From the NCBI GenBank assembly GCA_000091205.1, contig AP006500.2: DNA of 64,000 bases; one strand, given 5' to 3'. The notes under the pieces were generated by a model, which searched no databases, was not told where the DNA came from, and worked only from the letters and a program-made list of their open reading frames with translations. Within the stretch, counting starts at the first letter, position 1. Each line of letters opens with the position of its first letter. Shown piece by piece: positions 1 through 60,804 of the stretch. The translations under genes were made by a program, and so were the position numbers. This DNA comes from Cyanidioschyzon merolae (lineage: Eukaryota).

Positions 1-72
1 AACGAAAATGAGTATACAATGTGTATCCTGAGCCTACGACAGGTGTCTGATGCGATGTTAGATTCGCCATCG

Positions 73-100
73 CAGCAGCAGCTGCTGCTGCTGCTGCTGC
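73..100. repeat. Palindromic trinucleotide microsatellite (CAG)3(CTG)6
   Basis: gcagcagcagctgctgctgctgctgctgc. Confidence 0.9.
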
Positions 101-672
101 ACAAGGTAGACACCGCACCGCTCTGTAGCACCTCTGTATGGGTTTCAGCTCAAGATGAAAGCTCGACGACTCTGCAGGCACCGCGCAACTGCAGGATATC
201 GCTGTACGCTGGCGGTGCTATCGCCCCGGTGATCGCCACCGAGGCGCAGCAGCGGCTACCACCCTTGTTGGGTTATGATCGTCCTACCTAACCAGGACAC
301 TGCGAGTGTGTGATGGGTATCAGCGCCCCTTGAAGCATCTTTCGTGCCGCAGCACAGCATGAAATTCCGCCAAACATCATCAACCAAGCTTGCCTTTTAG
401 GATCATGATTCGTTCGCAAGATTCTCCCTGTGTCGAGCCTAAAGCTCCACTTCGGACACCATATGGAGACAGACTGCCTTGAGCATGTCCATATGAGTGC
501 GTCTGCTTGAGGGCGTCTGTCGTCGCCTGCCCCAGATCGCATCGGCCTTGGCGAGCCATCTGATGAACAGCCAGTTGGATAAGGAAACGTGGCAGCAACA
601 GCAGCAGCGCTCGGGTGCTTTCAACGAAACCGAAAGCGCTTCCTTAACAAGCTGCGAGTCCATATCACCTGA

Positions 673-2879: not shown

Positions 2880-3200
2880 AGCTTCGACACTGAAAGTGCT
2901 GTCATACGGGCTTGTGGATTCTCACAGAACGCCAGGATGCTCGGTCGTCGTTTCCGATTGGCTGCTTTGACCTGCTGCCGCTGGAATTCGATACGTCACT
3001 GGAATGCAGATGATTCGCGACAACCTCGAACTGTTCTTCGTCCAATAAACGATATCATTATTCGATGCAAGTGTACGAGCGTCCGCTCCTCGAATTTCCT
3101 TCCTTGTGGCATGCCCATATCCTGCGTTCTTCATGTGATCGATCTCTCTCTGATTCAACCCATATCATAGGCAGAATACTTCGCAATAATGGATTGATGC
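2880..3200. repeat. Degenerate partial copy of dispersed repeat family R4 (the sequence that forms the inverted-repeat arms at 33.9-37.8 kb)
   Basis: Read by eye, 2985-3100 matches the right-arm segment 36600-36720 (ctggaattcg...gattcgcgac...aaataa..atatc.ttattcgatgca). The antisense ORF 2922-3158 repeats the arm-ORF peptide ...ASNNDI.Y..K...R.SRI...PV..RIPA... Confidence 0.45.
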
Positions 3201-5419: not shown

Positions 5420-6130
5420 AACAGATTCAAACGCCATGAAGCATTCTGCGTCGAGAGCACAGAAACGAAATGCTACCTAGCAACGAGATCAGAATTTCTT
5501 TCCGTCTCTACGGTTGGCATTGAAAGGGGGAATGGTTTTCCGTATTTTCGAAAGTTTACATTTTTTAGGCAGAAGATCCAGCGAGCTGGACGGGTCTGCC
5601 AGGCCAGTGCTTCATGTGCCTCTGCTGGGACAGGTGCGGTGTCGAGACCTGAGCAACTCGTCCGCAACGCAGTTCTTTCCGGATTTCGGAGCTGGTAGAA
5701 TGTGTCTGGGCGCTGCCCTGATTGCGATAGTCTGCTAGAATATCGCTTCGCGCTGCCGCAGGAATCAGGTCCGGCTGCGCAGATTGCTGGCTCCCAGTAT
5801 GATCATGAATCCCAGTCCTGTGACTAGTGAACCACACCTCGATCCGACGCTCTCTGTTGTATGGTAAATATGCTCTGTCTTCATCTCACATCTGCAACGT
5901 CGCTGCAAGGACTATGGCAGGTGCAGCAAGGCGGGTATGCGGCGCACTATAGAACATACAACACGACCAGTAAATCCGAGATCAAGTCTAGGAAAATAAA
6001 CTTGAAGGTAAGGTGCAACATCACTGACGCTTTCTCGTTTACCATTATCCATCCCGCAAACTGGAATCCCGTATCAACGGAAACGTTTTGTCAAACAAAA
6101 CAATTGAGGTCGTCTTGCCGTCGCTGATTC
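5420..6130 (+). repeat. Partial copy of the Fanzor-unit 5' module (spacer plus R2), no adjacent intact Fanzor ORF
   Basis: 5420-5700 aligns with 26640-26930 (agaaacgag.atg...aatttctttcc..tctacggt.ggc...ttcgaaagtt.ac...gcttcatg). 5700-6130 aligns with R2 at 26930-27350 and with the reverse complement of 57040-57560 (tag.atatcgcttcgcgc.gccgcag...ggtatggtaaa...tagaaca...cccatcccgc...ggaaacg.t.tgtca). Confidence 0.5.
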
Positions 6131-14374: not shown

Positions 14375-16834
14375 ATGACCTATGCACTCGACCTGGGGAG
14401 CTCGTGGGACGGTTTTATCGTAATCGGTACACTTGTGGTCCAGTTCATTCTGCGTTGCGAAGCAGACCGGTCCAAGGACGAGTTTGCGAAACAAGTCGAG
14501 CTACTGAGCCTCGTCACTGCTGGTGCGGTGCTCGTTTCCGCATTCAGGCGCGCTGCTTGTGAGCCCTGCCACCGCAAGGCCGCTACACGACGTATATTGG
14601 ACAGCGCATCAAGTTCTCTGGACGCAACGGCTAGCGAGCATAAGACCAGCGGTACTGGACAGACTGCGGTGCGAGCACGGCAGCGCTTTCGTCGAGCACG
14701 AGACCAAGGGCTCCTAGTTGGACTTTTCTTGCCTTTTCTCTGTATCCTTGGTGCGTTGCGCGCTAACCTGCTGACTCCAGCCCAAGCGGTGCACTCGCTG
14801 AGCCTGGCTTTCTGTCAGGCGTGGTGCGCAGCCTGGACCTGGCACCTGGTTCCAGAGGAAACACCGGCACCAGCTGCCTCGGGAGACCGCGCTTTTTGTC
14901 GAAAACGCCGCCCTGTTGGTACCGCGCTCTTGTCAAAAGTGCCGCCTCTGGAGCTGAACTCGGATAAAGAAGGCGCCGGGCTCTGCTGGGCTTTCCTGCT
15001 GGAGCTACTCTGGCTGCATTTGGTACCTCTGGTCATTCTGAGACGGCTCAGCGGTACGTCTTGGATGCCCATCTGTACAGCGACCGTAGCGACGCTGATC
15101 GTCCGCAAGACGCTCGCAAGCGATGCCTTTGCTGGCACGTTTACGTACGGCGAAGCACTCCTGGTATCGTTCCTGGTGACAGTGGCTTGGTTTTCGCCTT
15201 TTCACATGTTCCCGACGGCACTCGGGTCTTGGCATGTAGTAGGAGTACATCAATCACACCCAGCGGTGTGGCAGGAGCACAGCTGCTTTTCAGTTGAGAA
15301 GCGCCTTGTGCCGGCAATGCACTCCGAGTTAGCCGCCGATGTCAAGCGCAGCGGCGTTGAAGCGATCCCGCTGTTTCACTTGTTCAAAGCGAGGCGCATC
15401 TCGGCAGCGTCATGTACTGAGGCTTGCGGTTGCGACGCACAGCCACCAAGGCAGCACGGGAGCCCCGGCACGCTGCAACAGTCGCGTCACATATCGCATG
15501 CTTGTCCGTATCGTCGCCTCATGCAAAGGTATCTGTTGAAGACCTCGGTAGAGCTTGCCACCGCAGGTATTTTGTTTGTGAATCACTGGCACCGATGGTT
15601 AGCGGGCTGGAACCAGGGTCATCGCGCACGCGCATCAAGTTGCGGTGCAGTGGGCATTGCTTTAAGGAGCCAGCAAGTGAGCGCTGTTCGCAACCTGCTT
15701 CGGCGGTTCGCTCGTCCGCTTGGTCTGGCCTTGCCTCTGGCACTGATCCTGCCCTTGAACTACTTGATGGCGCGTCGGACATTGAAGCGTTTATCGAGCA
15801 TGAACTCGGGCTCTTTTAGCGACTGCACAGACGCAGATGCTGCGGAGCCGTTCCGCTTGCTATGCAGCTGGATGACCCGAGACGTGTCGATTATGGTGCT
15901 CGTTCTCTACTGGGCTGTGACGCTTGCGGTAGGCATCTTCGCTCTAGGTCCGCATCGTTGGAAATGGCGACGCATCGTTGCCCGCAAGTACTACCATTTG
16001 CTGGCGCTCTTGCTTTTTATGCCGGTTATCTTGCGGCAGGATCCGCTATTATGGCAGTTTCTTTCCTTTGCTCAGACAGTAGCCTTGGCGGTGCTCATTG
16101 CCCTGGAGCTAGCCCGAATATCGGGTACGAACGCTGCGTTTCCCTTGGAGAGGCACTCGCCGTCAAAAGCTGCTTATTTGGTCGCTGGAACTTCAATGCA
16201 CCAGGTATTCGACGGTGGTCATGATGATGGTGTTTCTGCTGCAGCCAGCGGTGATCGAACAACTCCCTCCATGGATGCATCTCTGGGTGCGTCTGGTGGC
16301 ACGCAGAGTCGCCCCAGTTGCGACGTAACTCGAGGCCGCTCCTTTTACGAATCTGTTCATCAATTCATGACGACACTGGTCGACGAACGTGACCAGGGGA
16401 GCGTCATCGTCAGCCACCTCTATCTGCTTCTGGGATGTGCTGCACCTGGATGGCTTCTCCTGGGGCTCCTCGAACGATTTTCGGCATCGAATGGCTCCTG
16501 GACGAGTTTACTGACAGACTGGAGCAGTGGTCTGCTTTCGCTGGGTGTCTTCGATACTGCCGCGTGCATTCTGGGCAGTCGCTTTGGGAGACACCACTGG
16601 CCTCATAGTCGCAAGACAATCGAAGGCAGCTTGGGTGGCTTTATAGCTACCTGGCTATGTCAGTTGTTGCTGCAGCAGTGGCACGCACCGAATGTATTTC
16701 ATGTCAACTGGACAGCACTTGCGCGTTTCTCCGGTGCTGTGTTTCTCTGCACAGTATTTGAGGCACTTACCGCACAGAACGATAATCTGGTGCTACCAAT
16801 GTTCTGCTTCGCGGTTCTAGGGCTGTTCGGTTGA
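14375..16834 (+). CDS. Dolichol kinase-like polytopic membrane protein (C-terminal CTP-dependent dolichol kinase domain)
   Basis: 819-aa ORF with many hydrophobic segments. The C-terminus ...VFDTAACILGSRFGRHHWPHSRKTIEGSLGGFIATWL... resembles the DOLK/Sec59 catalytic motif (…G.R.G...WP...KT.EGS..GF…). The N-terminal extent is uncertain; the ORF may be over-extended. Confidence 0.6.
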   Translation: MTYALDLGSSWDGFIVIGTLVVQFILRCEADRSKDEFAKQVELLSLVTAGAVLVSAFRRAACEPCHRKAATRRILDSASSSLDATASEHKTSGTGQTAVRARQRFRRARDQGLLVGLFLPFLCILGALRANLLTPAQAVHSLSLAFCQAWCAAWTWHLVPEETPAPAASGDRAFCRKRRPVGTALLSKVPPLELNSDKEGAGLCWAFLLELLWLHLVPLVILRRLSGTSWMPICTATVATLIVRKTLASDAFAGTFTYGEALLVSFLVTVAWFSPFHMFPTALGSWHVVGVHQSHPAVWQEHSCFSVEKRLVPAMHSELAADVKRSGVEAIPLFHLFKARRISAASCTEACGCDAQPPRQHGSPGTLQQSRHISHACPYRRLMQRYLLKTSVELATAGILFVNHWHRWLAGWNQGHRARASSCGAVGIALRSQQVSAVRNLLRRFARPLGLALPLALILPLNYLMARRTLKRLSSMNSGSFSDCTDADAAEPFRLLCSWMTRDVSIMVLVLYWAVTLAVGIFALGPHRWKWRRIVARKYYHLLALLLFMPVILRQDPLLWQFLSFAQTVALAVLIALELARISGTNAAFPLERHSPSKAAYLVAGTSMHQVFDGGHDDGVSAAASGDRTTPSMDASLGASGGTQSRPSCDVTRGRSFYESVHQFMTTLVDERDQGSVIVSHLYLLLGCAAPGWLLLGLLERFSASNGSWTSLLTDWSSGLLSLGVFDTAACILGSRFGRHHWPHSRKTIEGSLGGFIATWLCQLLLQQWHAPNVFHVNWTALARFSGAVFLCTVFEALTAQNDNLVLPMFCFAVLGLFG

Positions 16835-18346
16835 AGTCGTGTCTCGTGTACTGGACAACGATTACGCGTTTCCCAGATGCTCTGTTTCTCTGCACAGGAT
16901 ATGAGACGCTCACTGCGTAGAGCGCCAAATCGGTGCAACCGAGGGTCTGCTTCGCACTTTTAGAACTGTTCGCGGGAAGTTATCCATCTGCGACTTGTGT
17001 CCCGGTGATCGAGTCTCGCACGATCGCTCGTGGAGACTGAGTTGGAAATCAACCCCTGGAGGCCTGCTCTGCGAAGGGCTCAGCCAAGTGCATGTTCTTT
17101 CGCCTCAGGATACGATCATAAAGCTGGGATGTTTTCGAGCATAGTCCATAAAGGATGCGTGATTCGGATGCGTCTCTGGATGGAATTGGTCTTTCGAAAG
17201 GGACCCAGTGTGATCGGCGCCTTATCGCTGCCGACAAGTTTACCGACATCGATAGGAGCCTTCAGCTCGAGTCTCGGTCGCTGCGCGTGTTTCTCCTGGT
17301 TGCGCCAGCAGAGCGCTCGTATCTCTTCAGCGTATACGCGGATGACGGCACGGGAGGTTCCAGATGTGCTTTGCTCGGAATCCATGTGCTTCTGACTCCA
17401 GTACGACGGAATCTGCATTGTTCACGGTTCCCGTTGTTCTCGACACGGTATTTCACTGTTCGTGTAGCGGGTCATCCGCGATCTCCGAATGTTCGCCTTT
17501 TTCCAAGCCAAACAAGGTCTATGGAATACCCCCGCTTCAAACATCCTGTCCCAAGGTGCAATGAAGGGTCTGATTCTCGATGAACTGCCCCCTGGAGACT
17601 TTCGGTGGGATCTTGTGCCGTCCCTGAGGCGCCAGATGCAGCAGCAGCTTCTTGCGCGAAGTTTCGTTTCCTGTATGTGCAAGCGTTCATGAATTGGTGC
17701 AACGAAATAACGTCGTGCGGGTGTGTGTAACGTCGCCAGCGAGACGACAAGCTTTGCGACGGCACATAGCCAGCTCTTAGTGCTAGATACTTTACGTGCG
17801 TCGAAGCGTTCACAGCCGCCTTGCCGTGCGCCCATTAAACTTTGGTGCGTTCATGAATACCGCACCCGAAGCGGCACCACTGCATATCGAGAAGGGCTGG
17901 ATTCATGCATCCCTTTTCAGCGCTCCGTTGGGATCATTGCAATCGATTTCGACGATTCGCTGCAACGTTGTTCACACTCTTTCAGCCTAGCGTTGTGCCT
18001 CCCATCTCGGGGGCATGCGCGTGTGTACTGTGGTCAAAAATCGTCGCATGTACGCAGCGTTGGTGTTCATCTACAGAATGAAGTGCGTCGACTCTAATGC
18101 AGACACCTTGCTTATCGGGTAACCGAATGTTGCTCTGTGGCCAGTCATGTGGAGGTGCGCACGCAAAGCTCGAATCGTGTGCAGTGAACAATGGGCACAA
18201 GAGGCACTGCATTTTTCCTGACATACGAGCGCTATCATGCGGAGTGGTTCCTTGGCTCACGAGCGCAGTGTGCACCATCAGCACTAGGGAGCATTCGGCG
18301 CGCGTTCACTTCGCTGCCGTGTCACCCGCGACCGCCAAAATGCCGG

Positions 18347-19189: not shown

Positions 19190-19440
19190 AGGAGGTGGTG
19201 GTGGTTGCGGAGACAGCACGCTATACTATTCAGGTAGGTAGGTACGCTCTCGGCACACCGGGAGATCCAGAATGCGTCGAGGCCATTGCTGGATATGCCC
19301 ATCTTAGAACGAAAAGAGAAGGACAGCACGCTATACGATTCAGGCAGGTAGGTACGCTCTCGGCACACCGGGAGCTCCAGAATGCGTCGAGGCCATCGCT
19401 GGATATGCCCATCTTAGAACGAAAAGAGAAGGAGTTCTTC
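19190..19440. repeat. Tandem duplication, ~110 bp x2
   Basis: cagcacgctata..attcagg.aggtaggtacgctctcggcacaccgggag.tccagaatgcgtcgaggccat.gctggatatgcccatcttagaacgaaaagagaagga occurs twice, starting near 19214 and 19324. Confidence 0.6.
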
Positions 19441-24270: not shown

Positions 24271-24600
24271 CTACGAGTGCTGCGCAGAGTCAGCGGATCT
24301 GACGGGAACGCCAGGAAACTCTCGCTTGAGATGTTTCCATTCGGGCCGATCCGTGCTTTTCGACTCCGCCATATCGTGCGCAACGAGCAGATAGATGCCG
24401 TACGGAACCAAGACTCCAAAGAGCAACGCGGTACGAATGTTCCGCGGGGTGAAACGGAACCGCTCCTCTAGAGTCTCCCGTCCAGCAACCCAGGCTTCCA
24501 CGTAAGGATTCTTCTTCACTTGCATAGCACCCATTCTTGGCCGATGTCTGCTTGAAAACGCGACTCTGAGCTTATCAAGAGCAAGAATAACCTCGGACAA
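24271..24600 (-). CDS. Small single-TM protein resembling NADH dehydrogenase [ubiquinone] 1 beta subcomplex subunit 4 (NDUFB4/B15)
   Basis: ...MGAMQVKKNPYVEAWVAGRETLEERFRFTPRNIRTALLFGVLVPYGIYLLVAHDM... resembles NDUFB4 (NPAL.RWAYART...F.PTPKNSLMGALCGFGPL.FIYYIIK). The likely start is an internal ATG (MGAMQ), not the alternative-start codon used by the ORF track. Confidence 0.4.
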   Translation of the reverse strand: MSEVILALDKLRVAFSSRHRPRMGAMQVKKNPYVEAWVAGRETLEERFRFTPRNIRTALLFGVLVPYGIYLLVAHDMAESKSTDRPEWKHLKREFPGVPVRSADSAQHS

Positions 24601-24614
24601 ATCGGGTACACGAA

Positions 24615-27350
24615 CGTCTTACAAGATAAACGCTGCTGCGGCCAGAAGTGTACAGTAGTGGCGAGAAACGCGCCCTAGACAAGACCTCTCCAAGTGACGT
24701 GCAGACGCCTCCCAGACTTTTTGGACCGGCCACCAACTACTGATTCCATTTTTTTCTCATATTAGTCCACTTTGAGAGGTTCTCCCACAAAATTCTCTCG
24801 TGTTCAGCTCTGGAGGTCTCGTCTCCAACACCGCACATCTCCTTATATTGACAGCGGCATTAAAGTCTCTGTTCACGAATTCCATACGTTTCTTGCCATC
24901 ATTGGTTGTACTTACTAATGCAAGTATTCCTCGAACTTTCGCTCCCCTTTCCATTCGCTCTACCGTCAGCGCCCCGTACGTTTTCATATCCTCAGGGATC
25001 CGCTGGCACTTTTCCATCTCCACTCTCTGAAGTGTATATCCCAACTCATGGTGTTTATAGAATGTTCGAAACTTATCTTTTGGTATCGTAACGAAACGTC
25101 GTGCCCACTCCTTGTACGTTCTTGTCGTTGGGGCTGGGGTACACCCTTTTTGGGTCACCCAGCGCCCTGCTCCGTACGCTACTACCAGCCTGTGACTCTT
25201 GTCGTCCTCCAAGGCGCTCAACTCATTAAAGAACTTGGCGAATGCACGCTGCTTCCCACTGTATAGATTCATACGCAGACGAGCCCAGCGGGGCTTTGAA
25301 TATTCTTTCCACATCTCCTCGTCATGAGCAGCCTGGGTTTCCATGAATTCCCGAAAGGCTCGAAAAACCGCCCCGCGGTTTGTCACTTTGCTGAACTCCT
25401 CACGGATATCGAACTCCGGGCTGATTTCTTTCAATGGGCCATGAAGGACGCTGGAGTTGATAGTCACAAAATGTGACTTGACGTTGCATAACGGAACGAC
25501 ATTGAAGCGCTTCCCCATTAGGGCAGCCTTCCGTCTCTCCCACTCCTCATTTTCTTCCTCATCCCGCATCATCTCCGCCTTGCGTTTGAGTTCTCGGTCC
25601 AAAAACACGAAATACGGCAGGATGAGGCGAAAGTATCTTTCCTTATATTTTTTCAACTCTGATATCTTTTCTGCTGGATTAGCCAGCCCAAGTACAAGAC
25701 GATCCTCTTGAAAAAGCGCACGGATTACAGAAGCTTCACTCGTATTCTCGTTTGACACTTTCTTGTCGACAAATTCGATCTCATCTTCATGCTGGCCATT
25801 GTTTTTGATACCATTGATAATCGCCCATATTGCTTTGCGAGAGAAGACCGGGTACAGCGCAAACACGGCGCGTATCATGAAACGTTCGAGGTTCATCGTC
25901 GAATGGTTCTTCAGGTTCGTGATGTACTTCATCGCCCCGTATGTGCAAATACGCGAGTCACCCTTGTATCGAGTACCCTCGAGGCTGTAAAACGGACGTT
26001 TTTCGTGAAGAGCGTGAACCCGCTCATTTTCCCTGCGCGTTTCCCCTGTGCCAAACATCAGCTGGCGAGTAGAGGTCTTGTCGAAAAACTCGTCTGGAAT
26101 CTCGACTGTTTCCATGTGCGTCACGTTGCGATACATCTCCCTCGCCAAATGCATCAGTCCTGACGACGCCTTAACAATGCTCTTGGAGCACGAGTCGACA
26201 CGGTTGCGGATGGCGTCTCGCAACTTTTCCTTGTACGAATCCTTCACACGTTTAAGAAGACAGGCTTTCGCCACCATCTCGTCGTACTGTTGCCTTTCGT
26301 ACAGCTTGTTCGTCTTCTCTTGTACCTCTGGACTCTGTACTGATTGTCGTCTTTTTCTGGCAGCTGGCGACACTGCGCCTCCAGGATCCTCTACTTCCTT
26401 TTCTATACGTTTCCTTTTTGTATTTGTTTTTTTTTTCTTGAAAAAGAGCGCATTTTTGAACGCTTCTTCTACAAACCAGCAAAAATAACTTGACCCCAGT
26501 CTGTTGAGGGTTAAAACGCAATCGAACTGAAAACGATGCTTTGCTACGACTACAACGCAAACACATCTTTTTCGGTGGAGCAAAACTCTATATATCAGGA
26601 TCGCGTTTCCCTTCCACAGCGACATTTACGTCGTGCCTCGTGAGTGCCAGTTCTCGAGGTGCGCGTATCGACCGCGCCATGGATAAAAGAATAGAAACGA
26701 GTCATGAAGTAGCAGCTCGATAACAATTTCTTTCCCCTCTACGGTAGGCGTTAGATGGGGAAAGTTTCTAAGCTTTCGAAAGTTCACCTTAGAGGCGGAA
26801 AAGCGCGCGAGCGGGACGAATTTCCCAGTCTCATGCTTCATGCTCCCTCCAGTGCCCAGCGCTGTAGCGAGATATAAGCAGCTTGTCCGAAACGCAGTTT
26901 ATTCTTGGACTCTGAACGGGTAGCCTGCGTCTGGTCGTCGCGCTGGTCCCAGTGGACTCCTAGCGTATCGCTTCGCGCAGCCGCAGCCGGTAGGTCTGTC
27001 CGCGCCGTTTCCAGGTTCCCAGAATGATAACGAATCCCGACCCCGTATCAGATGAACCCTGCCTCGATCCGGCACCCTCTGTGGTATGGTAAAGCCTTTC
27101 TGTCTCCGTGCTGCATCCGTTCCAGCGGTAGAAGCGCCACGGCGAGTGCTCAAAGCAGGTAATCGGCGCATGATAGAACATTCGAAACGACCGGTGCACC
27201 CGAAAGAATACACCAGTAATGGAACTTGGAGGTAGTTGCCTTATGATGGACAATTACATGAATCCTAATACCCGTCCCGCAATCTGGTATCCCTTATCAA
27301 TGAAGACGTTTCTTCATCGAAAAAAGATCAGCGGTACTGCTTCGAGCAGC
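24615..27350 (-). mobile_element. Fanzor/TnpB-like element, copy A: RE, 622-aa ORF, ~380-bp conserved spacer and ~0.45-kb 5' module R2
   Basis: Conserved along its whole length with 57040-60300 in inverted orientation. The 3' non-coding block 24615-24757 matches 60095-60300 and 10885-11045. The spacer 26550-26930 and R2 26930-27350 match the reverse complement of 57040-57940. Confidence 0.6.
24757..26625 (-). CDS. Fanzor/TnpB-like (OrfB_IS605-type RuvC) protein, intact 622-aa ORF, copy A
   Basis: C-terminal RuvC-III signature ...KKRMEFVNRDFNAAVNIRRCAV... (RDxNAAxNI, about 24847-24885). N-terminal lysine-rich NLS-like tract FFKKKKTNTKRKRIEKE. Collinear with the frameshifted paralog at 57950-60095. 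Relative to that paralog it lacks, in frame, the ~130-aa segment carrying the RuvC-I-like strand. The true start is uncertain because the ORF extends ~75 nt past the conserved 5' boundary of the element. Confidence 0.7.
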   Translation of the reverse strand: MSLWKGNAILIYRVLLHRKRCVCVVVVAKHRFQFDCVLTLNRLGSSYFCWFVEEAFKNALFFKKKKTNTKRKRIEKEVEDPGGAVSPAARKRRQSVQSPEVQEKTNKLYERQQYDEMVAKACLLKRVKDSYKEKLRDAIRNRVDSCSKSIVKASSGLMHLAREMYRNVTHMETVEIPDEFFDKTSTRQLMFGTGETRRENERVHALHEKRPFYSLEGTRYKGDSRICTYGAMKYITNLKNHSTMNLERFMIRAVFALYPVFSRKAIWAIINGIKNNGQHEDEIEFVDKKVSNENTSEASVIRALFQEDRLVLGLANPAEKISELKKYKERYFRLILPYFVFLDRELKRKAEMMRDEEENEEWERRKAALMGKRFNVVPLCNVKSHFVTINSSVLHGPLKEISPEFDIREEFSKVTNRGAVFRAFREFMETQAAHDEEMWKEYSKPRWARLRMNLYSGKQRAFAKFFNELSALEDDKSHRLVVAYGAGRWVTQKGCTPAPTTRTYKEWARRFVTIPKDKFRTFYKHHELGYTLQRVEMEKCQRIPEDMKTYGALTVERMERGAKVRGILALVSTTNDGKKRMEFVNRDFNAAVNIRRCAVLETRPPELNTREFCGRTSQSGLI

Positions 27351-29348
27351 AGTGCACGGCGGCGGCGCCGCCGAATGCCTGCGATGCACTCGGATATCTT
27401 GCTCAGGACGATAGCCTGGCCTCAAGACAGAACAGGAAAACAGTGCACTAGACAGTGCTGTTTTGTTTTGTGCTGTGTTTTGGACGAGCCCCTCAGGGAA
27501 CAGCGAGGGAGTTGCCCGCACGCCATGGGTAGTCCGCAGCTGGGGCACGCCTGCGCACCACACCAGGGCCTTCATAAGGGAACTCGGCAGCGAACCACGG
27601 AAAAGAGGCACATTGCTCCTGCCCAATTAGGACAGTTTGACACTGAGAGCGAGGTCGCTTTCTCGGGATATGGTAATGCTGCAGTGGTCAACCGTGGAAC
27701 CCACCCGCGAAGTTTTTCAGCGCGTACCAGCTTCGTCTGGTTTACTGAGCCCTGTGCTTTGACCAAAGTGCACGGCAAACACCCGTGCATAGGCATCCAG
27801 GAGAGTTCCTTCAGCGCTCCTGTTCTCTATCCGATCCATGGAGCTTCACGGATTCTTGTTCAGAGGCATTCCCCGCATCCGGTAAAGCGTGCGCTCCCGC
27901 GCTCGCGCTCTCGCTCCTGGAAAGCCTCGCTGTTCGAGCGTTTCTTCGGCCGGAAACGGTCATCGCGCCAAACTTGGCCCCACTTGATCAAAGAACAAGC
28001 ACCAACGGGGACAGTACCAGCTTCAGGTGCCTCATTCGCACAGAATGGAGCGGACACCACAGTTATTCCGCGAGCACGCGCTCGACATTCCCGTCACGAA
28101 CCGACAAGGGTAGCGTCGCCGACTCCCAGTAGTCGTGACATCACAGATGTTGACCGAAGCAACGCGGAAACTTGCATCGCGATACGCCATGTACACAAGG
28201 TTTTTCCCGACTCACATGCACCAGGAGGACAATTTTACGCCCTTTGTGATATTTTGCTCGATATCGAGGACGGCTCGCTAGTGGCTTTGGTTGGCCCCAG
28301 CGGTAGCGGCAAGTCGACACTGCTTCGTTGTATTGCGGGGCTTGAGAATCCGACCTCGGGGCGTATCTTCCTCCATGGGCGAGATACCGAGGAGATGAGT
28401 GTTCAGGAACGACGGATTGGCTTTGTATTCCAGCATTATGCATTGTGGAAGCACATGACCGTGTGGAAGAACATTGCATTTGGATTGGAGATTCGCAAGA
28501 CGCCTCGCTCAGAAATAGAACGGCGCGTCTTGGAGCTTCTGAAGCTCATGGGTCTTGAGGGACTCGGTGACCGCTACCCACATCAACTGAGCGGCGGACA
28601 GCGCCAACGGGTTGCGCTGGCTCGAGCCCTAGCTCCCGAACCGCGCGTCCTCCTCCTCGATGAGCCGTTTGGTGCGTTGGATACGCGAGTGCGGCGGAGT
28701 CTGCGTGCATGGCTTCGGCGCTTGCACGATGAGGTCGGCACAACGACGATCTTCGTGACGCATGATCAACAGGAGGCTTTAGAGATAGCCAGCTCCGTGG
28801 TGGTCATGAACAAGGGCCAGATCGAGCAGGTCGGCACACCGCTTGAGATCTATGAGCATCCAGCGTCGCCGTTTGTCATGAGCTTCATGGGCGATGTGAG
28901 CGTCGTGAGTCGTGATGCGCTCCCCGCAGAGCAGGCAAACGGGCGCACCTTCACGAATGCTACTCGAGCGCGCTCCGTGGAGACATCCAAAAAAGACTCC
29001 ATTTGGTCGGACCCCGAGCGTCCGCCGACAATACCGCGCGAGTCTGAGACAACGACCAATGTCCGTAAGAGCGATAACGCCGCCCAGTACTTGATGCTGC
29101 GTCCTCATGACGTTCACTTGCATCGCAGCCCCGATAGCACCACGGCTCCGGCTCGTGTTGTCGACGTGTTTTTCTTAGGTTGGAGTGTGCGTGTTGATGT
29201 CGAGCTCCAAGACGGCCAAATTCTTCAATCCATCATGCTCACAACGCGCTACAAAGAGCTGGGCGATTTGTATCCCGGCGACCTCGTGCATGTTAAGTTC
29301 TTCGGGGAACGCTCCTTCGAGGTGGACGAGGCCGAGTATAACATCTGA
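27219..29348 (+). CDS. CysA-type sulfate/thiosulfate ABC transporter ATP-binding protein with long N-terminal extension
   Basis: C-terminal ~400 aa: Walker [11 protein letters not shown]-loop, signature [15 protein letters not shown], Walker [13 protein letters not shown]-loop FVTHDQQEA, CysA/ModC-like C-terminal regulatory domain (...[13 protein letters not shown]...). The first ~330 aa are low-complexity. The first ~40 aa are encoded inside repeat R2, so the N-terminus may be over-extended. Confidence 0.75.
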
Positions 29349-33907: not shown

Positions 33908-35505
33908 ATTGGTGTCAGCATAAAATGGAGCAGGTCCACGAATACTGGCTAGCTCTCTAAAAAATGGGCCTCTTCTCCTGGCCGTCAGCGCCAGCCACTG
34001 TGGGATTTTTCCGTGACTGCTTCTTGTTTTATGTTTCTTGTATCTGAAATGAAAAACCGCGGTCTGTCCTTTTACTCTAGATCGGTTGTCACTAGTCGAT
34101 GGATATTGAGGAACACGTCCAAGCGCCGATGTGGCCGATTCAAGCTGTTATCGACGAATATCATAGACACTCGATCGTTGTGAGCTACGCTTCACTCGCC
34201 ATTTTCATGTTATTTATACAGAGCCCCAGTGCGTCCTTCGCGGCGGTGGCGCTTAACTCTTTTCAGATGTTCCTATACGCGCACCAAACATCCGCGGGCT
34301 TCTCCTCCTTCTTCTTCGAGCACCGCCACGTGACACGGGAACGCTTGCTTCGTCCCTAACCACACGAACTTGACGGGTAGCGTGGGGTTCCTTCGATGTC
34401 TCACTCCGTTTCCGCGCCTCAGTGCTGTACCCTAGGATGACGGGCGTCGTCGTCGGCAATCTCCTCGGCGAGTGTGCTGTTCGCAGGACACGAAAGCGTA
34501 GGCTGCCCCATTCGGCTGCGGATTTGTGGAACGCGATATTGACCATGACGAAACAGTGTCTGGAAGGAAACCCGGGCCTGACGAAGCACTCGAGAGATCC
34601 AGTTCCATCTACGCTCCGTTCGTGCAGCGGATTTGTGGAACGCGATACTGACCATGACGAAACAGTGTCTGGAAGGAAACCCGGGCCTGACGAAGCACTC
34701 GAGAGATCCAGTTCCATCTACGCTCCGTTCGTGCAGCGGATTTGTGGAACGCGATATTGACCATGACGAAACAGTGCCTGGAAGGAAACCCAGGCCTGAC
34801 GAAGCACTCGAGAGATCCAGTTCCATCTACGCTCCGTTCGTGCAGCGCGGTGAAGCAGCCTCCGATAGAAGCGATCGCTGCGATAACGCAAGTCCGAGTC
34901 CAAGACACTTCTCCATGCAAACCGAAGACACGCGGGCCTCTACGAGCATACCCCGTGCAGCGTCGCACGCTGTTGTTGGCTCGCGCTCCACCGATAGCGT
35001 CAAAACGGGTAGGAATTGTTGTTCGGTCGATTTCAGCTAATGGAGGCGACAAGGTCAGTGAGCTTACGTTATGAGCTTGTACATACGACGTTCAGGGACA
35101 GCATCGACTTTTTCGTTTCCACGTCAATCCACCAGCGCCAACGCCTGCACCAACGAGTTGCTTTGAACGAGAACGATCGAAAACTTGAGCAGTGTCTGTG
35201 CTGCGAGCCTGCTATACGTCGGGCAAGGACAGGTGCGGCGGCTTGTACGCATGCATCGAATAACGATATCCGTTATTTGAGGAAGCCTTGTCTGAGGGCG
35301 TCGCGAATCGTCTCGACCCCAGTGCCGTCACGAATTCCAGCAACGACGAATTGAACGGGAGACACTGCAACAGAGACCGACCGAGACTCCTACAACTGCG
35401 TATCGGTTCGTATGCTCTTATTGCTGAACTTCAAATGTTGAGGCCGTGCTTCTAAAAAATCTTCGGAAAACTATCGAATGGTTAGAATGGAGCGAGCGGC
35501 TCAAT
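33908..35505. repeat. Left arm of large inverted repeat (R4 family element) with internal 109-bp tandem sub-repeats
   Basis: Near-identical reverse complement of 36425-37812. Arm ORFs 35016-35354(+) and 36589-36927(-) differ at 2 of 112 aa; 34099-34359(+) and 37366-37626(-) are almost identical. The outer ends match (ggtctagattggtgtcagcataaaatggagcaggtccacgaatactggctagctc…). Confidence 0.85.
34506..34860. repeat. 109-bp tandem repeat, ~3.3 copies, inside the left IR arm
   Basis: Unit cgtgcagcggatttgtggaacgcgata.tgaccatgacgaaacagtg.ctggaaggaaacc.gggcctgacgaagcactcgagagatccagttccatctacgctccgtt. Identical ORF starts at 34633 and 34742 (period 109). The right arm carries about two fewer copies, which accounts for the ~210-bp difference in arm length. 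Confidence 0.7.
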
Positions 35506-36424: not shown

Positions 36425-37812
36425 ACTCAGATGGAAGATGCAGCCGCTCGCTCCATTCTAACCATTCGATAGTTTTCCGAAGATTTTTTAGAAGCACGGC
36501 CTCAACATTTGAAGTTCAGCAATAAGAGCATACGAACCGATACGCAGTTGTAGGAGTCTCGGTCGGTCTCTGTTGCAGTGTCTCCCGTTCAATTCGTCGT
36601 TGCTGGAATTCGTGACGGCACTGGGGTCGAGACGATTCGCGACGCCCTCAGACAAGGCTTCCTCAAATAACGGATATCGTTATTCGATGCATGCGTACAA
36701 GCCGCCGCACCTGTCCTTGCCCGACGTATAGCAGGCTCGCAGCACAGACACTGCTCAAGTTTTCGATCGTTCTCGTTCAAAGCAACTCGTTGGTGCAGGC
36801 GTTGGCGCTGGTGGATTGACGTGGAAACGAAAAAGTCGATGCTGTCCCTGAACGTCATATGTACAAGCTCATGACGTAAGCTCACTGACCTAGTCGCCTC
36901 CATTAGCTGAAATCGACCGAACAACAATTCCTACGCGTTTTGACGCTATCGGTGGAGCGCGAGCCAGCAACAGCGTGCGACGCTGCACGGGGTATGCTCG
37001 TAGAGGCCCGCGTGTCTTCGGTTTGCATGGAGAAGTGTCTTGGACTCGGACTTGCGTTCTCGCAGCGATCGCTTCTATCGGAGGCTGCTTCACCGCGCTG
37101 CACGAACGGAGCGTAGATGGAACTGGATCTCTCGAGTGCTTCGTCAGGCCCGGGTTTCCTTCCAGACACTGTTTCGTCATGGTCAATATCGCGTTCTACA
37201 AATCCGCAGCCGAATGGGGCAGCCTACGCTTTCGTGTCCTGCGAACAGCACACTCGCCGAGGAGATTGCCGACGACGACGCCCGTCATCCTAGGGTACAG
37301 CACTGAGGCGCGGAAACGGAGTGAGACATCGAAGGAACCCCACGCTACCCGTCAAGGGCGTGTGGTTAGGGACGAAGCAAGCGTTCCCGTGTCACGTGGC
37401 GGTGCTCGAAGAAGAAGGAGGAGAAGCCCGCGGATGTTTGGTGCGCGTATAGGAACATCTGAAAAGAGTTAAGCGCCACCGCCGCGAAGGACGCACTGCG
37501 GCTCTGTATAAATAACATGAAAATGGCGAGTGAAGCGTAGCTCACAACGATCGAGTGTCTATGATATTCGTCGATAACAGCTTGAATCGGCCACATCGGC
37601 GCTTGGACGTGTTCCCCAATATCCATCGACTAGTGACAACCGATCTAGAGTAAAAGGACAGACCGCGGTTTTTCATTTCAGATACAAGAAACATAAAACA
37701 AGAAGCAGTCACGGAAAAATCCCACAGTGGCTGGCGCTGACGGCCAGGAGAAGAGGCCCATTTTTTAGAGAGCTAGCCAGTATTCGTGGACCTGCTCCAT
37801 TTTATGCTGACA
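36425..37812. repeat. Right arm of large inverted repeat (R4 family element)
   Basis: Reverse complement of 33908-35505. The inner end at 36425 (gccgctcgctccattctaaccattcgatag) mirrors 35470-35505. Confidence 0.85.
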
Positions 37813-38049
37813 CCGGTGTAACACGAGACACTTGCCACTGTCGCGCTTCTATCCGCGTGCATGTACGTATGCTCGAGTTACCCGCCCCGTTGCCGGCGAC
37901 GTAATGAACAAGCTCACTTGGCGCACACCTAAAGACTCCCAAGCATCACGCTTTGACAGGCTCTATTATACCACACTCTTTGAAAGAAACAGCGCCACAC
38001 ACAGTATCGACGAGATATCTCGTTGCTATGACCTGCGCGGCGAATACAG

Positions 38050-49560: not shown

Positions 49561-51169
49561 GTCTCTTGGAACGTCAAGTCATCCGGAGGGACTAGTTGAT
49601 CTGGTTTCGTGCTTGCTGGCTGTGCGGGCATATGCAGGAGGCCGCAATTGATGCATCAACCCCACAGCATGAGAAAAACACTCCTGGATGCAACAGCGGA
49701 AGTGACCATTCTTACTCGTAGGCAAGCGCGCAGAGATGTCGTTCAGGGATTTCGGATCGTCGACGCTGACTGCGAATCCCCGATGAAGCGATTGATATCC
49801 GCGTCCATCATTGCGCATCGCACTGTGAGGCGTCACCAATCACCACCTTTGCTTCTCTTCACGTATACTAGTCCGCCAGTTCGTGTGATGCTGTGTGGTG
49901 CCGACTGCCTACCCTGAGCGCCGACGAGGACGTACACGGTGCCGCAGCGGATGCTGCACGGAGGCAAAGCGGCTTCGCCATACCCGTGAGAACGTCGGCT
50001 CTAAATGTGGTTTATTTGACGCGTCGTCAGGTATCTCCCTCATGTCGTGCCCTGACAGTCACTGTATGCGGACCTGACTTTACATCAAGATGCGTTGCAG
50101 AAAAGAAGCTGTCAGGAGGAATCCTGAAAACCCCGAGTCTTCGCTTCCCTGTATTGGGAGGCATGCAATGCGGTCTTGCGACTCGGGGGCCATTGCGCTG
50201 CACTCAGCAGCCAGGAGATGCACGAAACGCCGGGCGCGCATGTTCATGCAGTTCGCGGCTCTTTTTCGCCTAGAAAGACGAATAAGAGTTTGGTGCCAGA
50301 TAGCGCGCATTTTGGTCCAACCAGTGGGCCTCCAATTGTCAGTTCTGCACCCAAAATAAGCGAACGCTCATGAGCATCTATAGTGACATCCACGAGGTGT
50401 GATTGCTCGAACAGCCAGCTTCGTTCCTGTGTCCGAACGCGAACACTGCAAAAGCGAGTCTCGCCGAGCATTGGGAGTTACGTCTCCCCTGCAGAAGCAG
50501 TATGATTCCCTGCGAGCATGTAATTTTTCGATGCAACACAAGGCCCGGACGTGCTAGACTTCACCGATTCGCTCTTTAGCGAGCCAGACGGTTCCCATGG
50601 GAACCTCTGACCACCCCAATGACTCCCGCCAAACGTTTCATGTCTCTACTCGGTGGTTCTTCTAATGGGATGCGAGGCCAACGTTGAAGATCCTGTTCTT
50701 TCGAAATCGGCATTTGCATTCTTTGCCTTGAACCGTTCGTTAGAGATGTCGAGAAAAGAGTCAGTCCCAGAAACCAACTGGTATATATCCACTCCAAAGC
50801 CATACTTGAGGAAAATCTGCCTCCACTAGACCCAAACGCTTTTTCGATACCTTGGGATGCACGCCATCATCCGGTTGAGCCGGGGGCGCGTGCTGGGCCT
50901 CTTGGCCCTTGTACGACGCGCTGCAGTCTGCTGCAATGACTTCCAACGGGGGTGTATAGGATTTACATCCGAGAGCTTCCGTGCTGGGTGCTCTGCCGAG
51001 CATCCCGACACGATTCGCATCGACCTGTTGACTGGGGTCTGCATTCGCGAAGCGAGTGCGAGGCTCATGCCCCACCATTCGACGCCCCAGGTGACCGCCT
51101 TGATGATGCACATCCTAATTGACCCGATGCAGACTCCCAGCGACATCCCTATGGGTCCGATAAGAACCT

Positions 51170-51455
51170 GCATGCACGAGCTGAGCGTTTCTTGATCTTG
51201 GCAATCTCCTCTCCTATATATACACACTTTCATCCAGTGTGCATGCACGAGCTGAGCGTTTCTTGATCTTGGCAATCTGCTCTCCTATATATACACACTT
51301 TCATCCAGTGTGCATGCACGAGCTGAGCGATTCTTGATCTTGGCAATCTGCTCTCCTATATATACACACTTTCATCCAGTGTGCATGCACGAGCTGAGCG
51401 TTTCTTGATCTTGGCAATCTTCTCTCCTATATATACACACTTTCATCCAGCATCG
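51170..51455. repeat. 71-bp tandem repeat x4 with TATA-like core, immediately upstream of the oxidoreductase gene
   Basis: Unit gcatgcacgagctgagcg.ttcttgatcttggcaatct.ctctcctatatatacacactttcatccagtgt. Copies start at 51170, 51241, 51312 and 51383, giving an exact period of 71 with 1-2 substitutions per copy. Confidence 0.85.
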
Positions 51456-51462
51456 ACGTGAG

Positions 51463-57039: not shown

Positions 57040-60000
57040 AGCTACTATCCTGCATCGGAACGAAGGACGCTCACCCGCGGTAGTGTCGCGCTTCTGATCC
57101 GCGCAGGCGCGTAAGCCGGCAGGAGTCGTTGCTGCATCGAGTTTTTTTCGATGACAGAGCGTTTCCATTGACCATGAATCCCCAATAGCGGGATGGGTAC
57201 TACGATTCATGTAATTCTCCATCATGACGCAACCTATCTCCAAGTTCCATTACCCATATTTCCTCTCAGGTATACTGGTCTTTTCCTTTGTTCTATCGTA
57301 TGCCAAGTGCCTGCAGTGAGCACCCACCGCAGCGCCTAAACCGCTTGTGCGGATGCTACACGGAGACAGAGTAGCTTTGTCATACCACTGAGGGCGTCGG
57401 CTCGAGGAATGCTACACCTGACACGGGATCAGGGCTACTTATCATTCTGGGAGTCTGGAAGCTGCGCAGGCAGGCGTACTGCCTGCGGCAGCGCAGAGCG
57501 ATATTCTTCGAGGACACCACGACCAGCGCGACGCCCAGACGCAGCATACCGCTCTGAGTCCCAGAATAAACTGCATTGCGGACGAGTTGCTCAGATCTCT
57601 CTGCATGACCAGGCTCCGAGAGGTCTATGAAGCACGAGCCTGGGAGAATCGTCCGACTCGCGGGACATTCCGCCCAGAAGGTAAACTTTCGTCAATATGG
57701 AAATCTTTGCTCCCCATGAATTTTTATCATTGACAGGGAAGGCAATTGTTATCTCGCTGCCAGTCAGTAGTGAGTCTCTGCTCTTCGTTCTATAGAGTAC
57801 AGTCGATAGGCGCACCCAGGAGATCTGCCAGGCACGAGGTACGACGTGGATATCGCCATTGAAGAGAAACGCGATCCTGATCATTAGCATGTTGTATACC
57901 GTACAAGGTGTATTTGCGTTGAAGTCGTAGCAACGTTTAGTCTTCAGTTCAGTTGTGTTCCAACCCCAAAGCAAGTATATACGAGCGATTTTTCGTGGTT
58001 TATAGCAGAAGCGTTCAAAGTGTGTTCTTTTTCGAAAATAAAAAAGGAAAGTTCTGGACGAAGAAGTGGAGGATCCTGGAGGCACGGTGTCGCCAGGTGG
58101 CGAAAAGAACGAAAAATAGTGCCGAGCAAAGATGAACAGGAGAAGAAGAAGAAGAAGCGAGAGCCAGACCTCAACGGCTGCAAGAAAGGCGACAGCATGA
58201 CGAGATGATAGTGAACGCCTGCCTTCTTGGATGTATCAAGGATCCGTACGAGCAGAAGATGCGAGAGACCACCAGAAGCCGTGTCGATTCCTACTCCAGG
58301 AGCGTGCGTAACACTTCTTTTTGGACTGAAGCATACGGTGAAGGAGATATACGATGACCTTACCGACACGAAAACAGTCGAGGTTCCGGAAGCGTTTTTT
58401 TTAACAAGACCCTCAGCCGCCACTTGATGCTTGGCACAGGGGGACGTCGAGGGAAAATGAGCGCATGTGCGTCCTCCATGAAAAATACCCCTACTAGGGT
58501 CTCAAAGGTACTCGTTACAGGGGTGACTCGCGTATTTTCGAATACAGGGCAAAAAAGTATCTCACGAACCTGAACAACCATATGATCATGAAGCTCGAAC
58601 GTTTCATGACACGCTCCATCGTTGCGCGCTACCCGGGCCTCTCTCGCAAAGGGATACGGGCCATCATCAATGGCGTCAGGAACGATAGTAAGAATGAACA
58701 GGAGATCGAATTCCTCGACGAGAAGACATCACACAGGAGAACGAATGAAGCTTCTGCAATCCGTACGGCAATTCAAGAGCACCGTCCGGTCTCGGAGCTG
58801 GTCAATCCAGCAGGAAATGTATCAGGTATGGAAAAAGAAAAGCAAAGATGTTATCCCCTAATCCTGCGCTATTTCGTGTGTTTGGACCGCGAACTCGATC
58901 CCAAGGCCAATATGGAGCTGGGTGTGGAACAAAATGTAGAGTCAGAGAAACGGAAGGGTATCCTAACGGGTAAGCGCTTTAGCGTTGTTGCGTTATGCAT
59001 CACCAAGTTCCATTTTGTAACAATCGACTCCAGAGTCCTCAACGGCATCATGAAGGAGGTCTGTCTGGAGTTCGATGTAAGGAAGATAGAGTTCACCAGT
59101 GAAAACCGGGAGACGTACTGGAAGAATATCTTCAATTTCAAACGTCTCAATACGTGCAAGCAAAAGGTATTCACTGGCATCATCGAAACCGATGGAGTAG
59201 CCATGTGTGTACACTCTCGGCGCTTGAAGGCAGATCGTCCAGTTCCGTCCTCGACTGCGCCCGTGGCGAAGCATGAAGAAAACAAGGAGGCTGGCCTTAC
59301 AACGCAGGAGGTACAGGAGAACGATTTTGTTGTTGGCACGGACCCTGGGAACACGAATATCGTAACCATCGCAGTACCCAAGCGTGCGGAAGATGATATC
59401 GACGGCAACTTACGTCAGAAGGACATCCGTCTTTGAAAGCTCACGACAGCTACATCTTACCGAGAATCAGGAAAACTGAATGCAAGGAAAAGAAATGAGA
59501 CGTGGAATGCAGGAGTGAAAGAGCACAAGGCAGCGATCAGCCAGGTGACGAGCCGAGGAGCGGACTTTGAAGCTTTTCGAGAGTTCATGAAAGTCCGCGC
59601 TGCTCTTGACGAGCCGCTGTCGAAAGAATCTACAAAGCCCCGGTGGGCTCGTCTGCTTAGAATCTTGTACTTTGGGAAGCAGCACGCATTTGCCAACTTC
59701 TTCAATGAGTTGAGCGCTCTCAAAGAGGACAAAATTCAGAGACTCGTGGTGGTATACGGAGCAGGGCATTGGATGACACGGAAAGGTAGCACACCAGCTC
59801 CATCGACACGAGCGTATAAGGAGTGCACACTGTGCTTCGTCATGATGTCGATAGATGGGTTCCGAACGTCGTATACATCCACCATGAGCTAGGGTGTGTA
59901 CTTGAGAGTGTCGAGATGGAAAAGTGCCAGCAGAGCACTGAGGATGTAGCAAACTACGGAGCGCTGACAGAGCACCTAACGGCATGGAGGGTGCGAGTTC

Positions 60001-60300
60001 GAGGTCTACTTCCGTTGGTGAGTACAACCAATGCCAAGAAACATATGAAATTCGTGAACCGAGACTTCAATGCCGCCAACAGTATAAGCAGATAGGCGGT
60101 GCTGGAGAAGAGGCCCCCAGAGTTGACCAGAGCCAACTTTCTGGGGCAACCTCTGCAGATGGCGCTGTACGAGAAGAAGCTGAAGCCAGTAGTAAATGGC
60201 CGGTCCAAAAACCCTGGGAGAATTCTGCACGCTGGCGTATATACATCAACGCTATCGGCTTGATGTGTGTGCGTTCGTTTGCTCGTTTTGCTGGCGGGAT
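57040..60300 (+). mobile_element. Fanzor/TnpB-like element, copy B: R2, spacer, full-length but disrupted ORF and RE
   Basis: 57040-57560 is R2 in reverse complement relative to 26930-27350. 57560-57940 is the spacer, the reverse complement of 26550-26930. 57950-60095 is coding. 60095-60300 is the conserved 3' block (…ccagag.tga.c…aacctct…cagtag…tggccggtccaaaaa.cctgggag…tctgcac…). Confidence 0.6.
57950..60095 (+). pseudogene. Fanzor/TnpB-like gene, copy B; retains RuvC-I-like and RuvC-III motifs; disrupted by stop and frameshifts
   Basis: Frame pieces 58582-59436, 59437-59892 and 59823-60095. RuvC-I-like ...[19 protein letters not shown]... at 59333-59356. In-frame TGA at 59434-59436. Frameshift near 59870. 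RuvC-III ...KKHMKFVNRDFNAANSI.... The N-terminal NLS-like region 57950-58210 (…QEKKKKKRE…) is itself split across two frames. About 60% amino-acid identity to copy A over alignable parts, estimated by eye. Confidence 0.65.
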
Positions 60301-60804
60301 TGATGGCGTCGATCCCGAGTCCAGATGGAGAGCTGGCGGGAATGCTGCTGCGCTCTTTTCGCTGCAGTGCGTTGCGAGGCATTCTGTAACGAGAGGCAGG
60401 TTTCCAGGGGCAGCACAGAGCAGCAACACAGGATACGTTCAAAGGCGTGCTTGGCGTGCTTCCGAGCGGCACCTTCGGGGGTTTATTTCGGAGCTTCGCC
60501 TTCGAGCGCTCTCCATAAGCGAAATACCAACGGTTTCAGTGATGGGCGGGCAACGATGCGTACAGGTGAGAAACGCTCCAGATGCCACGACCACCGCGCG
60601 ATCGTTGCGCCAGGAAACGACATAATTTTGAGAAGAAGCATATACAGGCCCAATCCTAATGATAAGCGATTTCATGTAGTCGACGCATCGAATATATGTA
60701 GCCGCTAGGCACCGACGCATCCTCGTTGACATGCGGAGCGCAGCGTTCTCCTGTCCAATGCCCAGTCATGCCCCGTACAGGTATTCATTTCTTGACCGCA
60801 TCAT

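Follow-up and report, generated by a model that had tools for sequence, protein, structure and literature searches.

The 64,000-nucleotide (nt) stretch of Cyanidioschyzon merolae analysed here (contig AP006500.2 of assembly GCA_000091205.1; hereafter the window) carries several copies of a repeated module, R2, which a first-pass annotation made from the letters alone had described as the 5' part of a Fanzor unit, with an ATG-initiated open reading frame (ORF) reading outward into the flanking host genes. Our analysis indicates, with high though not full confidence, that R2 is the non-coding left (5') end module of a known C. merolae Fanzor1 transposon, CMe-1A, and that the outward ORF is fortuitous. 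The module is already described in the literature and the finding is, in this respect, an ordinary one.

CMe-1A was reported as a C. merolae family of about 3 kb, with about 150 copies that are about 80% identical to their consensus, without terminal inverted repeats (TIRs) and with target site duplications (TSDs) that could not be determined (Bao and Jurka, 2013; Mob DNA 4:12, PMC3627910). According to the same work, its 5' 635 bp show 95% identity to TE-N2_CMe as a whole, a repeat of about 70 copies and unknown class, its protein, CMe-1, begins MEKEVEDPGG, and its consensus, provided as Additional file 2, measures 3169 bp. This published consensus begins CGATGACAAAACG and comprises, from left to right, the module (positions 1-635), a TATATAG box (641-647), a leader of about 260 nt, the Fanzor ATG at position 906, a 734-amino-acid (aa) ORF and a right-end module. 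The box thus stands 5 nt past the inner end of the module and precedes the Fanzor ATG by about 260 nt. It is retained as TATAG, TATAT or TATTT in most lineages, and is found in the window at ~26673-26679 in copy A and at ~57790 in copy B. In copy A the box is degenerate and the consensus ATG has become ATA.

R2 was compared by alignment to this consensus, by profile search and by self-comparison of the window. Consensus positions 1-980 were aligned by blastn to copy A (27319-26333, 79% identity) and to copy B (57149-58127, 82.5%), and positions 4-634 to copy C (6093-5456, 76.8%); because the published consensus aligns in this way, R2 is the outer portion of the ~635-bp module, that is, of positions 1-635 of CMe-1A or TE-N2_CMe, and copy C is a stand-alone TE-N2. 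Similarity extends over the full module in all three copies (79.6% over 635 nt in copy A and 81.1% in copy B when positions 1-635 are considered alone, 76.8% in copy C), and the module occurs both linked to Fanzor1 (A and B) and solo with the same boundaries (consensus 634 and 4 in copy C, past either of which element sequence was looked for and not found). A profile built from seven lineages gave nhmmer matches at 26702-27328 (+), 57140-57771 (-) and 5470-6101 (+), with E-values of 1e-181 to 1e-195; together with the consensus alignment, this confirms a repeated module at the first three places where it had been proposed. Self-comparison of the window yielded a repeat of ~2.7-3.1 kb in inverted orientation, at ~24.6-27.3 kb (A) and 57.1-60.3 kb (B); smaller pieces are a 0.6-kb fragment (5.5-6.1 kb, C) and, at 10977-11210, the 3' end of one more copy (D).

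The extent of R2 had been underestimated. Similarity between copies A, B and C is unbroken from the outer terminus (...CATCG, 27319 in copy A) inward over ~635 bp and, in A and B, on into the ORF, so R2 is larger than the 0.45 kb first attributed to it and the supposed ~380-bp gap between R2 and the Fanzor ORF is itself conserved element sequence. The interval first flagged, 26930-27350, corresponds to the outer two thirds of the copy A module plus 31 bp of flank. The initial list of copies likewise needs amending: A, B and C stand, the degenerate copy at ~11760-12100 gave no nhmmer match even with --max and E<=100, and a partial copy at 49741-50034 had been overlooked. The latter, which comprises the outer ~300 bp and is also found at the matching position in locus L026 (L numbers designate loci outside the window), turns its outward side towards the undecaprenyl-diphosphate synthase gene (47401-48672) and lies ~1.07 kb upstream of it. 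All that remains of element D is its 3' end (10912-11177) together with part of the N-terminal region. No consistent TSD was seen at six full-length copies or at copy C. Outside the terminus, most copies show an A-run of varying length and purity, which may be either flank, reflecting a target preference, or tail.

The protein encoded by the family places it among Fanzor1 nucleases. The 622-aa Fanzor ORF alone matched nothing in Pfam or PDB; it has 74 homologues, nearly all metagenomic, whose alignment displays the RuvC triad motifs GxDPG, VDEFRTS and NRDxNAAxNI, and the family profile matches the Parasitella parasitica Fanzor1 (PDB 9cf0) with an E-value of 2.5e-10. The family alignment thus shows the RuvC-I aspartate, RuvC-II glutamate and RuvC-III aspartate, together with a relation to a characterised Fanzor1. 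The window copies themselves are damaged. Copy A has lost ~190 internal aa, among them the RuvC-I DPG motif, and its VDEFRTS reads KDKFRTF; with RuvC-I deleted and the RuvC-II glutamate replaced by lysine, this is a dead copy. The copy B Fanzor is frameshifted, tblastn pieces falling in several frames. A further Fanzor exon was sought upstream of A, B and C by six-frame translation and was rejected, stops being present everywhere.

The right-end module is the best conserved part of the element (84-86% identity between lineages) and, judging by its position, is likely an omegaRNA scaffold. The right end of copy A at 24613 is an extrapolation, aligned sequence extending to 24623. As a separate observation, the element runs ~42 nt past ...CTGTACAC and closes in a hairpin (24613-24660 (-) in the window, 6420-6470 in L008, and likewise in L010, L016 and L017), whose arms vary compensatorily between copies; this hairpin and the 250 strongly conserved bp that precede it make up the likely omegaRNA/right-end region. 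When the same orthologous insertion was compared between strains (24634-26625 against L020/L021), differences amounted to 2.1% in the Fanzor body and to as much as 6.8% in the right-end module, against only 0.5-0.8% in R2 and the flanks; the pattern resembles ectopic gene conversion of the Fanzor part by copies of the element located elsewhere. A comparison of the module inner end with the element right end, made for a premature-termination model, gave a weak resemblance only, and an Rfam scan of the whole element gave only two sub-threshold, snoRNA-like chance matches.

The two ends of the element share a sub-terminal motif, the left end matching an internal site of the right end in inverted orientation at 17 of 21 positions. 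The left-end GACAAAACGTTTAC-ATTGAC (consensus positions 4-24, window ~27296-27316) is the inverted copy of the right-end GTCAGTTGGAGACGTTTTGTC, located ~65-85 nt from the consensus 3' end (window ~24680-24700). The two may be paired recognition sites, though the element was reported without TIRs. The motif RACGTTTTGTC was no more frequent in the window than in shuffles, because the window copies are decayed, and a search for further copies by pattern in IMG/VR and prokaryotic genomes gave chance 17-mer matches only. From a mechanistic point of view, the module would have supplied left-end cis sequences to the active element, its terminal GACAAAACGT motif recurring inverted near the right end, and would probably also have given upstream promoter sequence to the Fanzor gene. 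The window copies are probably decaying relics without a demonstrated role for CysA, GPD or KRR1.

The outward ORF was then considered copy by copy. The copy A peptide ending ...HRKKI translates as first quoted. By contrast with that quotation, the peptide given for copy B (MEIGCVMMENYM...) is not translated from any ATG: the ATG at 57250 opens a frame of 16 aa (MELGDRLRHDGELHES, then a stop), and the frame MMENYMNRSTHPAI...HRKKL (MMENYM...) starts at 57225, codes for 65 aa and stops at ~57028-57030, that is, ~8-10 nt past the GPD ATG (57038) and in a different frame from GPD. Nor does the module adjoin the GPD start, as had been proposed for the end of this ORF, R2 homology ending at ~57143-57149, 105-111 bp short of the GPD ATG. 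The last 130 nt of copy C are devoid of ATG. In the published consensus, the outward ATG frame reads MELGGRCSMMDAFPKANIHPAIWDPWSM and then meets a TAA 17 nt before the terminus, inside the element; this TAA was lost by mutation in copy A (AAG) and in copy B (GAA), and only A is in frame with its neighbour.

Comparison of further copies leads to the same picture. Among ten copies, C, L004 and L008 lack the first ATG, several lineages contain not a single ATG, and a 1-nt indel sets the spacing between the first ATG and ATGATGG in copy A apart from that of the other copies. Gap runs in the R2 alignment measure 1, 2, 4 and 5 nt, there is no three-base periodicity of conservation, and every one of the six frames of our profile consensus is interrupted by stops. 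Neither a conserved frame and start, nor triplet indels, nor an excess of third-position changes, as expected of a protein-coding exon, was thus found. Because the consensus stops early, the ATG is lost or shifted, indels are non-triplet and periodicity is lacking, the ORF is not part of the design of the module; it is, like the in-frame fusion to CysA, an accident of individual decayed copies. A 132-codon open stretch on the Fanzor-sense strand of the profile consensus was also considered and rejected as coding, on account of non-triplet indels and absent periodicity.

The fusion itself is present as first described: the 709-aa ORF at 27219-29348 runs from copy A into the CysA-like ATPase and matches exactly the protein annotated as "sulfate ABC transporter ATP-binding subunit cysA" (BAM82632.1 / XP_005538668.1). 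A protein search with the CysA N-terminus found a single informative divergent orthologue, P0134, which is 77% identical, measures 602 aa and aligns from residue 232 of the 709-aa ORF, residues 1-231 finding no match in it. Synteny holds on both sides of its locus, L033, which has neither R2 nor Fanzor. As to the proposed comparison with R2-less orthologous loci, this more distant species lacks the element at the CysA locus and close strains, sampled in metagenome contigs, all carry the same insertions; L033 is too diverged to define the insertion junction. The true start of CysA is probably M103 at 27525, which gives 607 aa. Because M103 agrees with the 602 aa of the element-free orthologue and with the gene calls of 607 aa made for related strains, the 709-aa annotation is most likely a longest-ORF artefact. 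In the host-flank part of the extension (27328-27524), a codon-usage score favoured no reading frame, a score that is also low in the transit-peptide regions of control genes. Also present in the host flank, between the terminus of the element and the likely CysA start, is at ~27436-27480 (+) an 11-12-bp hairpin (AAAACAGTGCACT...CAGTGCTGTTTT) followed by TTTTGTTTTG.

Conservation along R2 was indeed close to that of unconstrained sequence. Pairwise identity between copies (0.58-0.72) is about that of Fanzor third codon positions (0.60-0.79, versus 0.68-0.88 at positions 1 and 2) and far lower than in the right-end module (0.84-0.86); it is flat along R2 and lowest in the terminal 100 bp that carry the ORF (0.43-0.56). 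Strain 10D was also compared with related strains from metagenome contigs, in which the differences within R2 amounted to 0.8% (A), 1.6% (B) and 1.4% (C), with 0.3-2.9% in adjacent intergenic DNA and 0.07-0.9% in coding sequence. Since R2 diverges between strains like neighbouring intergenic DNA, this comparison, whose power is low, gives no sign of exaptation or of purifying selection on the insertions in place. As for RNA structure, RNAalifold predicted only 19 pairs in 688 columns, and a sliding-window folding test on both strands singled out 2 of 30 windows, which overlap and correspond to one hairpin (copy A, ~27110-27150; z -3.1 to -3.7) that is broken in two further copies, L029b and L035. 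No conserved structure with compensatory changes was found beside the boundary. Judged from these alignments and folds, the module is without coding constraint or extended conserved RNA structure, its divergence being near neutral both between copies and in place.

The module is separable from the remainder of the element, as observed in the solo copy C and in locus L035, where the module has been inverted in place as a whole (consensus 618..1 at 7979-8598, then consensus 660-966 forward). In L035 (7979-8938) the breakpoints lie at the two ends of the module, and the TATATAG box is absent at the junction. Such separability raises the possibility that the module is an independent mobile element (TE-N2), for example one with a short interspersed nuclear element (SINE)-like outward transcript and an A-rich tail, which became joined to the Fanzor unit; the latter would really start near the TATA box, and R2 in A and B would be a passenger or neighbour. 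We regard this as rather unlikely, while giving it more weight than any other alternative. It would account for the solo full-length copy C sharing both boundaries with the module within CMe-1A, for the inversion in L035 relative to an adjoining Fanzor unit that resumes near consensus 650-660, past the TATA box, for the ~70 copies of TE-N2 (Bao and Jurka, 2013), for the A-rich runs of varying length beyond the outer terminus and for the outer terminus being kept in the partial copies at 49741 and L029:1550. However, the module is Fanzor-linked in the same orientation in 7/7 other lineages sampled and has diverged like the remainder of the element, neither copy C nor the full-length copies show TSDs, and an Rfam scan found no tRNA, 5S or 7SL similarity in the module. 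Truncation is not one-sided either: a retroposon would agree with the A-rich runs past the terminus, but L036 keeps the inner 140 bp only, being truncated from the other side.

Other copies carry internal deletions or are cut short from one side or the other: L004 has the module joined to residue 127, L010 misses 120 bp inside the module, and L029:1550 holds the outer 260 bp and a right-end fragment. Solo right-end fragments are as common as solo module pieces, as expected from general decay, and the overall pattern of deletions and truncations fits the decay of an old family. Repeats at two partial copies (7 bp at 49741, 10 bp at L029:1550) are of doubtful meaning; the 10-bp direct repeat was rejected as a TSD, since it marks the junction of an internal deletion in an element whose right end is kept.

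Some observations weigh against R2 being a mere transposon end with a fortuitous ORF. In 8/9 assignable independent insertions, the gene next to the R2 terminus turns its 5' end towards it (one-sided binomial p ~0.02 against 50%, by our own arithmetic), the distance from terminus to ATG being 105-361 bp in seven of these eight and ~1.07 kb in the other. The genes faced are CysA (A), GPD (B), KRR1 (C) and the synthase gene (49741 copy) in the window and, elsewhere, those for a HEAT-repeat protein (L029:1550), CDP-diglyceride (cytidine diphosphate-diglyceride) synthase (L004), a protein kinase (L008) and a major facilitator superfamily (MFS) transporter (L017). The 102 open codons from the R2 ATG to M103 would be expected by chance in only ~2-3% of cases, by our own rough estimate. 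The divergences between strains are small counts (5-11 differences), which makes the test of constraint one of low power, and the hairpin of copy A reaches its z of -3.7 on the outward strand only.

The orientation tally would favour R2 being an outward promoter and/or 5' exon donated to the host neighbour by exaptation, with the R2 ATG as the true CysA start, and so would the annotation of the 709-aa ORF that starts in R2 as BAM82632.1 and the location of insertions within very short promoter regions (~105 bp from B to the GPD ATG), where a promoter function is conceivable. We nevertheless consider this improbable. The family consensus stops ahead of the terminus, the B ORF is out of frame with GPD, C lacks an ATG, the ORF-bearing stretch is the least conserved part of the module and its between-strain divergence is that of intergenic DNA, and the element-free CysA orthologue measures 602 aa, against 607 aa from M103, without similarity to residues 1-231. 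The orientation count is itself ambiguous. A small ORF at 24271-24600 (-), conserved in a related species (L033, 579-836), starts ~80 bp from the right end of copy A, which was therefore inserted in a ~290-bp divergent promoter region between this ORF and CysA, where any orientation faces a 5' end; copies C and L035 probably lie in divergent intergenic regions too, as suggested by unchecked ORFs, and the L016 copy points into a 3' gene end. The tally is thus suggestive, yet underpowered and confounded, targeting, survival bias and function being indistinguishable in so small a sample. Of the two explanations initially offered, the element's left end with an artefactual continuity of frame is the one retained, the donated outward promoter or 5' exon being unsupported; an outward promoter role for host genes might at most be weakly and circumstantially suggested by these sequences.

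A related proposal is that the module is a separable mobile unit that lands, or is retained, upstream of host genes, faces them and supplies promoter activity, including to essential genes such as KRR1, whose native upstream region it would have displaced. We hold this proposal to be slightly less probable still, the hints being only the inversion in L035 and the 8/9 tally. If promoter supply were true, the most abundant repeat of C. merolae would be wired into host gene expression, and a module acting as a host promoter would be a neat case of exaptation of a transposable element (TE) in one of the most compact eukaryotic genomes. Finally, it is very improbable that R2 encodes a structured non-coding RNA, whether a guide of the omegaRNA type that would read out into the flank or some other RNA of the element: a single hairpin, which has G-U pairs, is significant on the outward strand only and the module end would be the exact element boundary where a guide might begin, but 28/30 windows are without signal, the consensus pairs are few, the hairpin is not retained in L029b and L035, there is no Rfam match, the outer 100 bp beside the would-be guide are the least conserved, and the canonical omegaRNA position, from the ORF 3' end to the right end, is held by the best conserved segment of the element.

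Coordinates of the features of the element and of the CysA gene are collected in Table 1. Exact look-up of five ORFs, that of CysA included, placed the window in nuclear DNA of C. merolae strain 10D. Apart from CysA, exact matches to annotated proteins were obtained for KRR1 (BAM82625.1), GPD (BAM82641.1) and undecaprenyl-diphosphate synthase (BAM82639.1). The exact sequence of a 429-aa WD40 ORF was found in metagenome sources only, a shorter, 353-aa cluster member being the annotated BAM82628.1. The window also contains a 99% identical inverted repeat of ~1.5 kb (33911-35501 / 36442-37814), whose arms hold 109-bp tandem units, and separate tandem arrays of 71-bp, 110-bp and ~143-bp units (among 34515-34847, 51169-51521, 19212-19431 and 16707-16980); the inverted repeat and the arrays are unrelated to the Fanzor element. 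Self-comparison revealed a second dispersed repeat family with 64-76% identity, at 2980-3447, 34869-35341, 36602-37074, 41908-42012 and 53339-53404.

Table 1. Features of the CMe-1A copies and of the CysA-like gene, in window coordinates.
Feature	Position	Strand	Basis
Module, copy A (CMe-1A 1-635 = TE-N2_CMe)	26687..27319	- (outward = +)	blastn to consensus, nhmmer, alignments
Short A-run directly outside the consensus terminus, copy A	27320..27326	+	flanks of ~10 copies compared
Leader between module and family-consensus Fanzor start, copy A	26404..26686	-	consensus reading, alignment coordinates
Fanzor1 pseudogene, copy A	24757..26625	-	alignment with 13 homologues
Right-end (3') module, copy A	24613..24899	-	consensus tail aligned 24774-24623; nhmmer 24634-24899; hairpins
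Module, copy B	57149..57785	+ (outward = -)	81% to consensus 1-635; nhmmer 57140-57771
Remainder of element B: leader, frameshifted Fanzor, right-end module	57786..60303	+	tblastn pieces in several frames; right-end module 60031-60303
Copy C, solo full-length module (TE-N2_CMe type), ~230 bp upstream of KRR1	5456..6093	-	consensus 4-634
Solo partial copy retaining the outer terminus (profile positions 338-631)	49741..50034	+ (outward = -)	nhmmer E 5.8e-20
Probable fortuitous ORF extension, N-terminus of BAM82632.1	27219..27524	+	36 codons in R2 + 66 codons of host flank
CysA-like ATP-binding cassette (ABC) ATPase, most likely coding sequence, 607 aa from M103	27525..29348	+	Pfam ABC_tran, TOBE_2; 607-aa related-strain gene calls

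The significance of these results is small and mostly a matter of housekeeping. The start codon of the annotated CysA (BAM82632.1, 709 aa) sits in a transposon end; the probable start of the protein is M103 (607 aa). CMe-1A now has a slightly sharper anatomy, with its separable 635-bp module, TATA box, leader, Fanzor1 gene and conserved right end, which could aid the reconstitution of a red-algal Fanzor with its guide RNA, or repeat masking in Cyanidiales genomes.

Compared with TE-derived promoters and chimeric first exons, copy A shares an ATG ORF that is continuous with a host gene, and copies lie 100-360 bp upstream of gene starts; here, however, the frame is not conserved and the module appears unconstrained in place, and the simplest view of the fusion is that it reflects annotation of the longest ORF. 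Elements of the IS200/IS605 type, with TnpB or Fanzor, resemble CMe-1A, at whose copies no TIRs or consistent TSDs were found, and share with it a nuclease ORF followed by a conserved right-end module at the position of the omegaRNA. IS605-type elements carry a transposon-associated motif (TAM) immediately outside their left end, and the T-rich run directly outside the left end of CMe-1A may be its analogue, standing at the same place. CMe-1A differs in having no TnpA/Y1 transposase, and no left-end subterminal hairpin conserved across copies was found; to our knowledge, bacterial IS605 elements have no separable left module of 635 bp. The closest likeness is TE-N2_CMe itself, the 5' 635 bp of CMe-1A, which comes from the same organism, shows 77-82% identity over its full length and has the same two boundaries. 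Like the window copies, it occurs both joined to Fanzor1 and solo, with no TIRs or TSDs found. The present analysis adds that the module ends 5 nt before the TATATAG box, is inverted in L035, seems to evolve neutrally and has a terminal motif that recurs inverted near the right end. There is no essential difference between the two, the window copies being diverged individual insertions of this same module.

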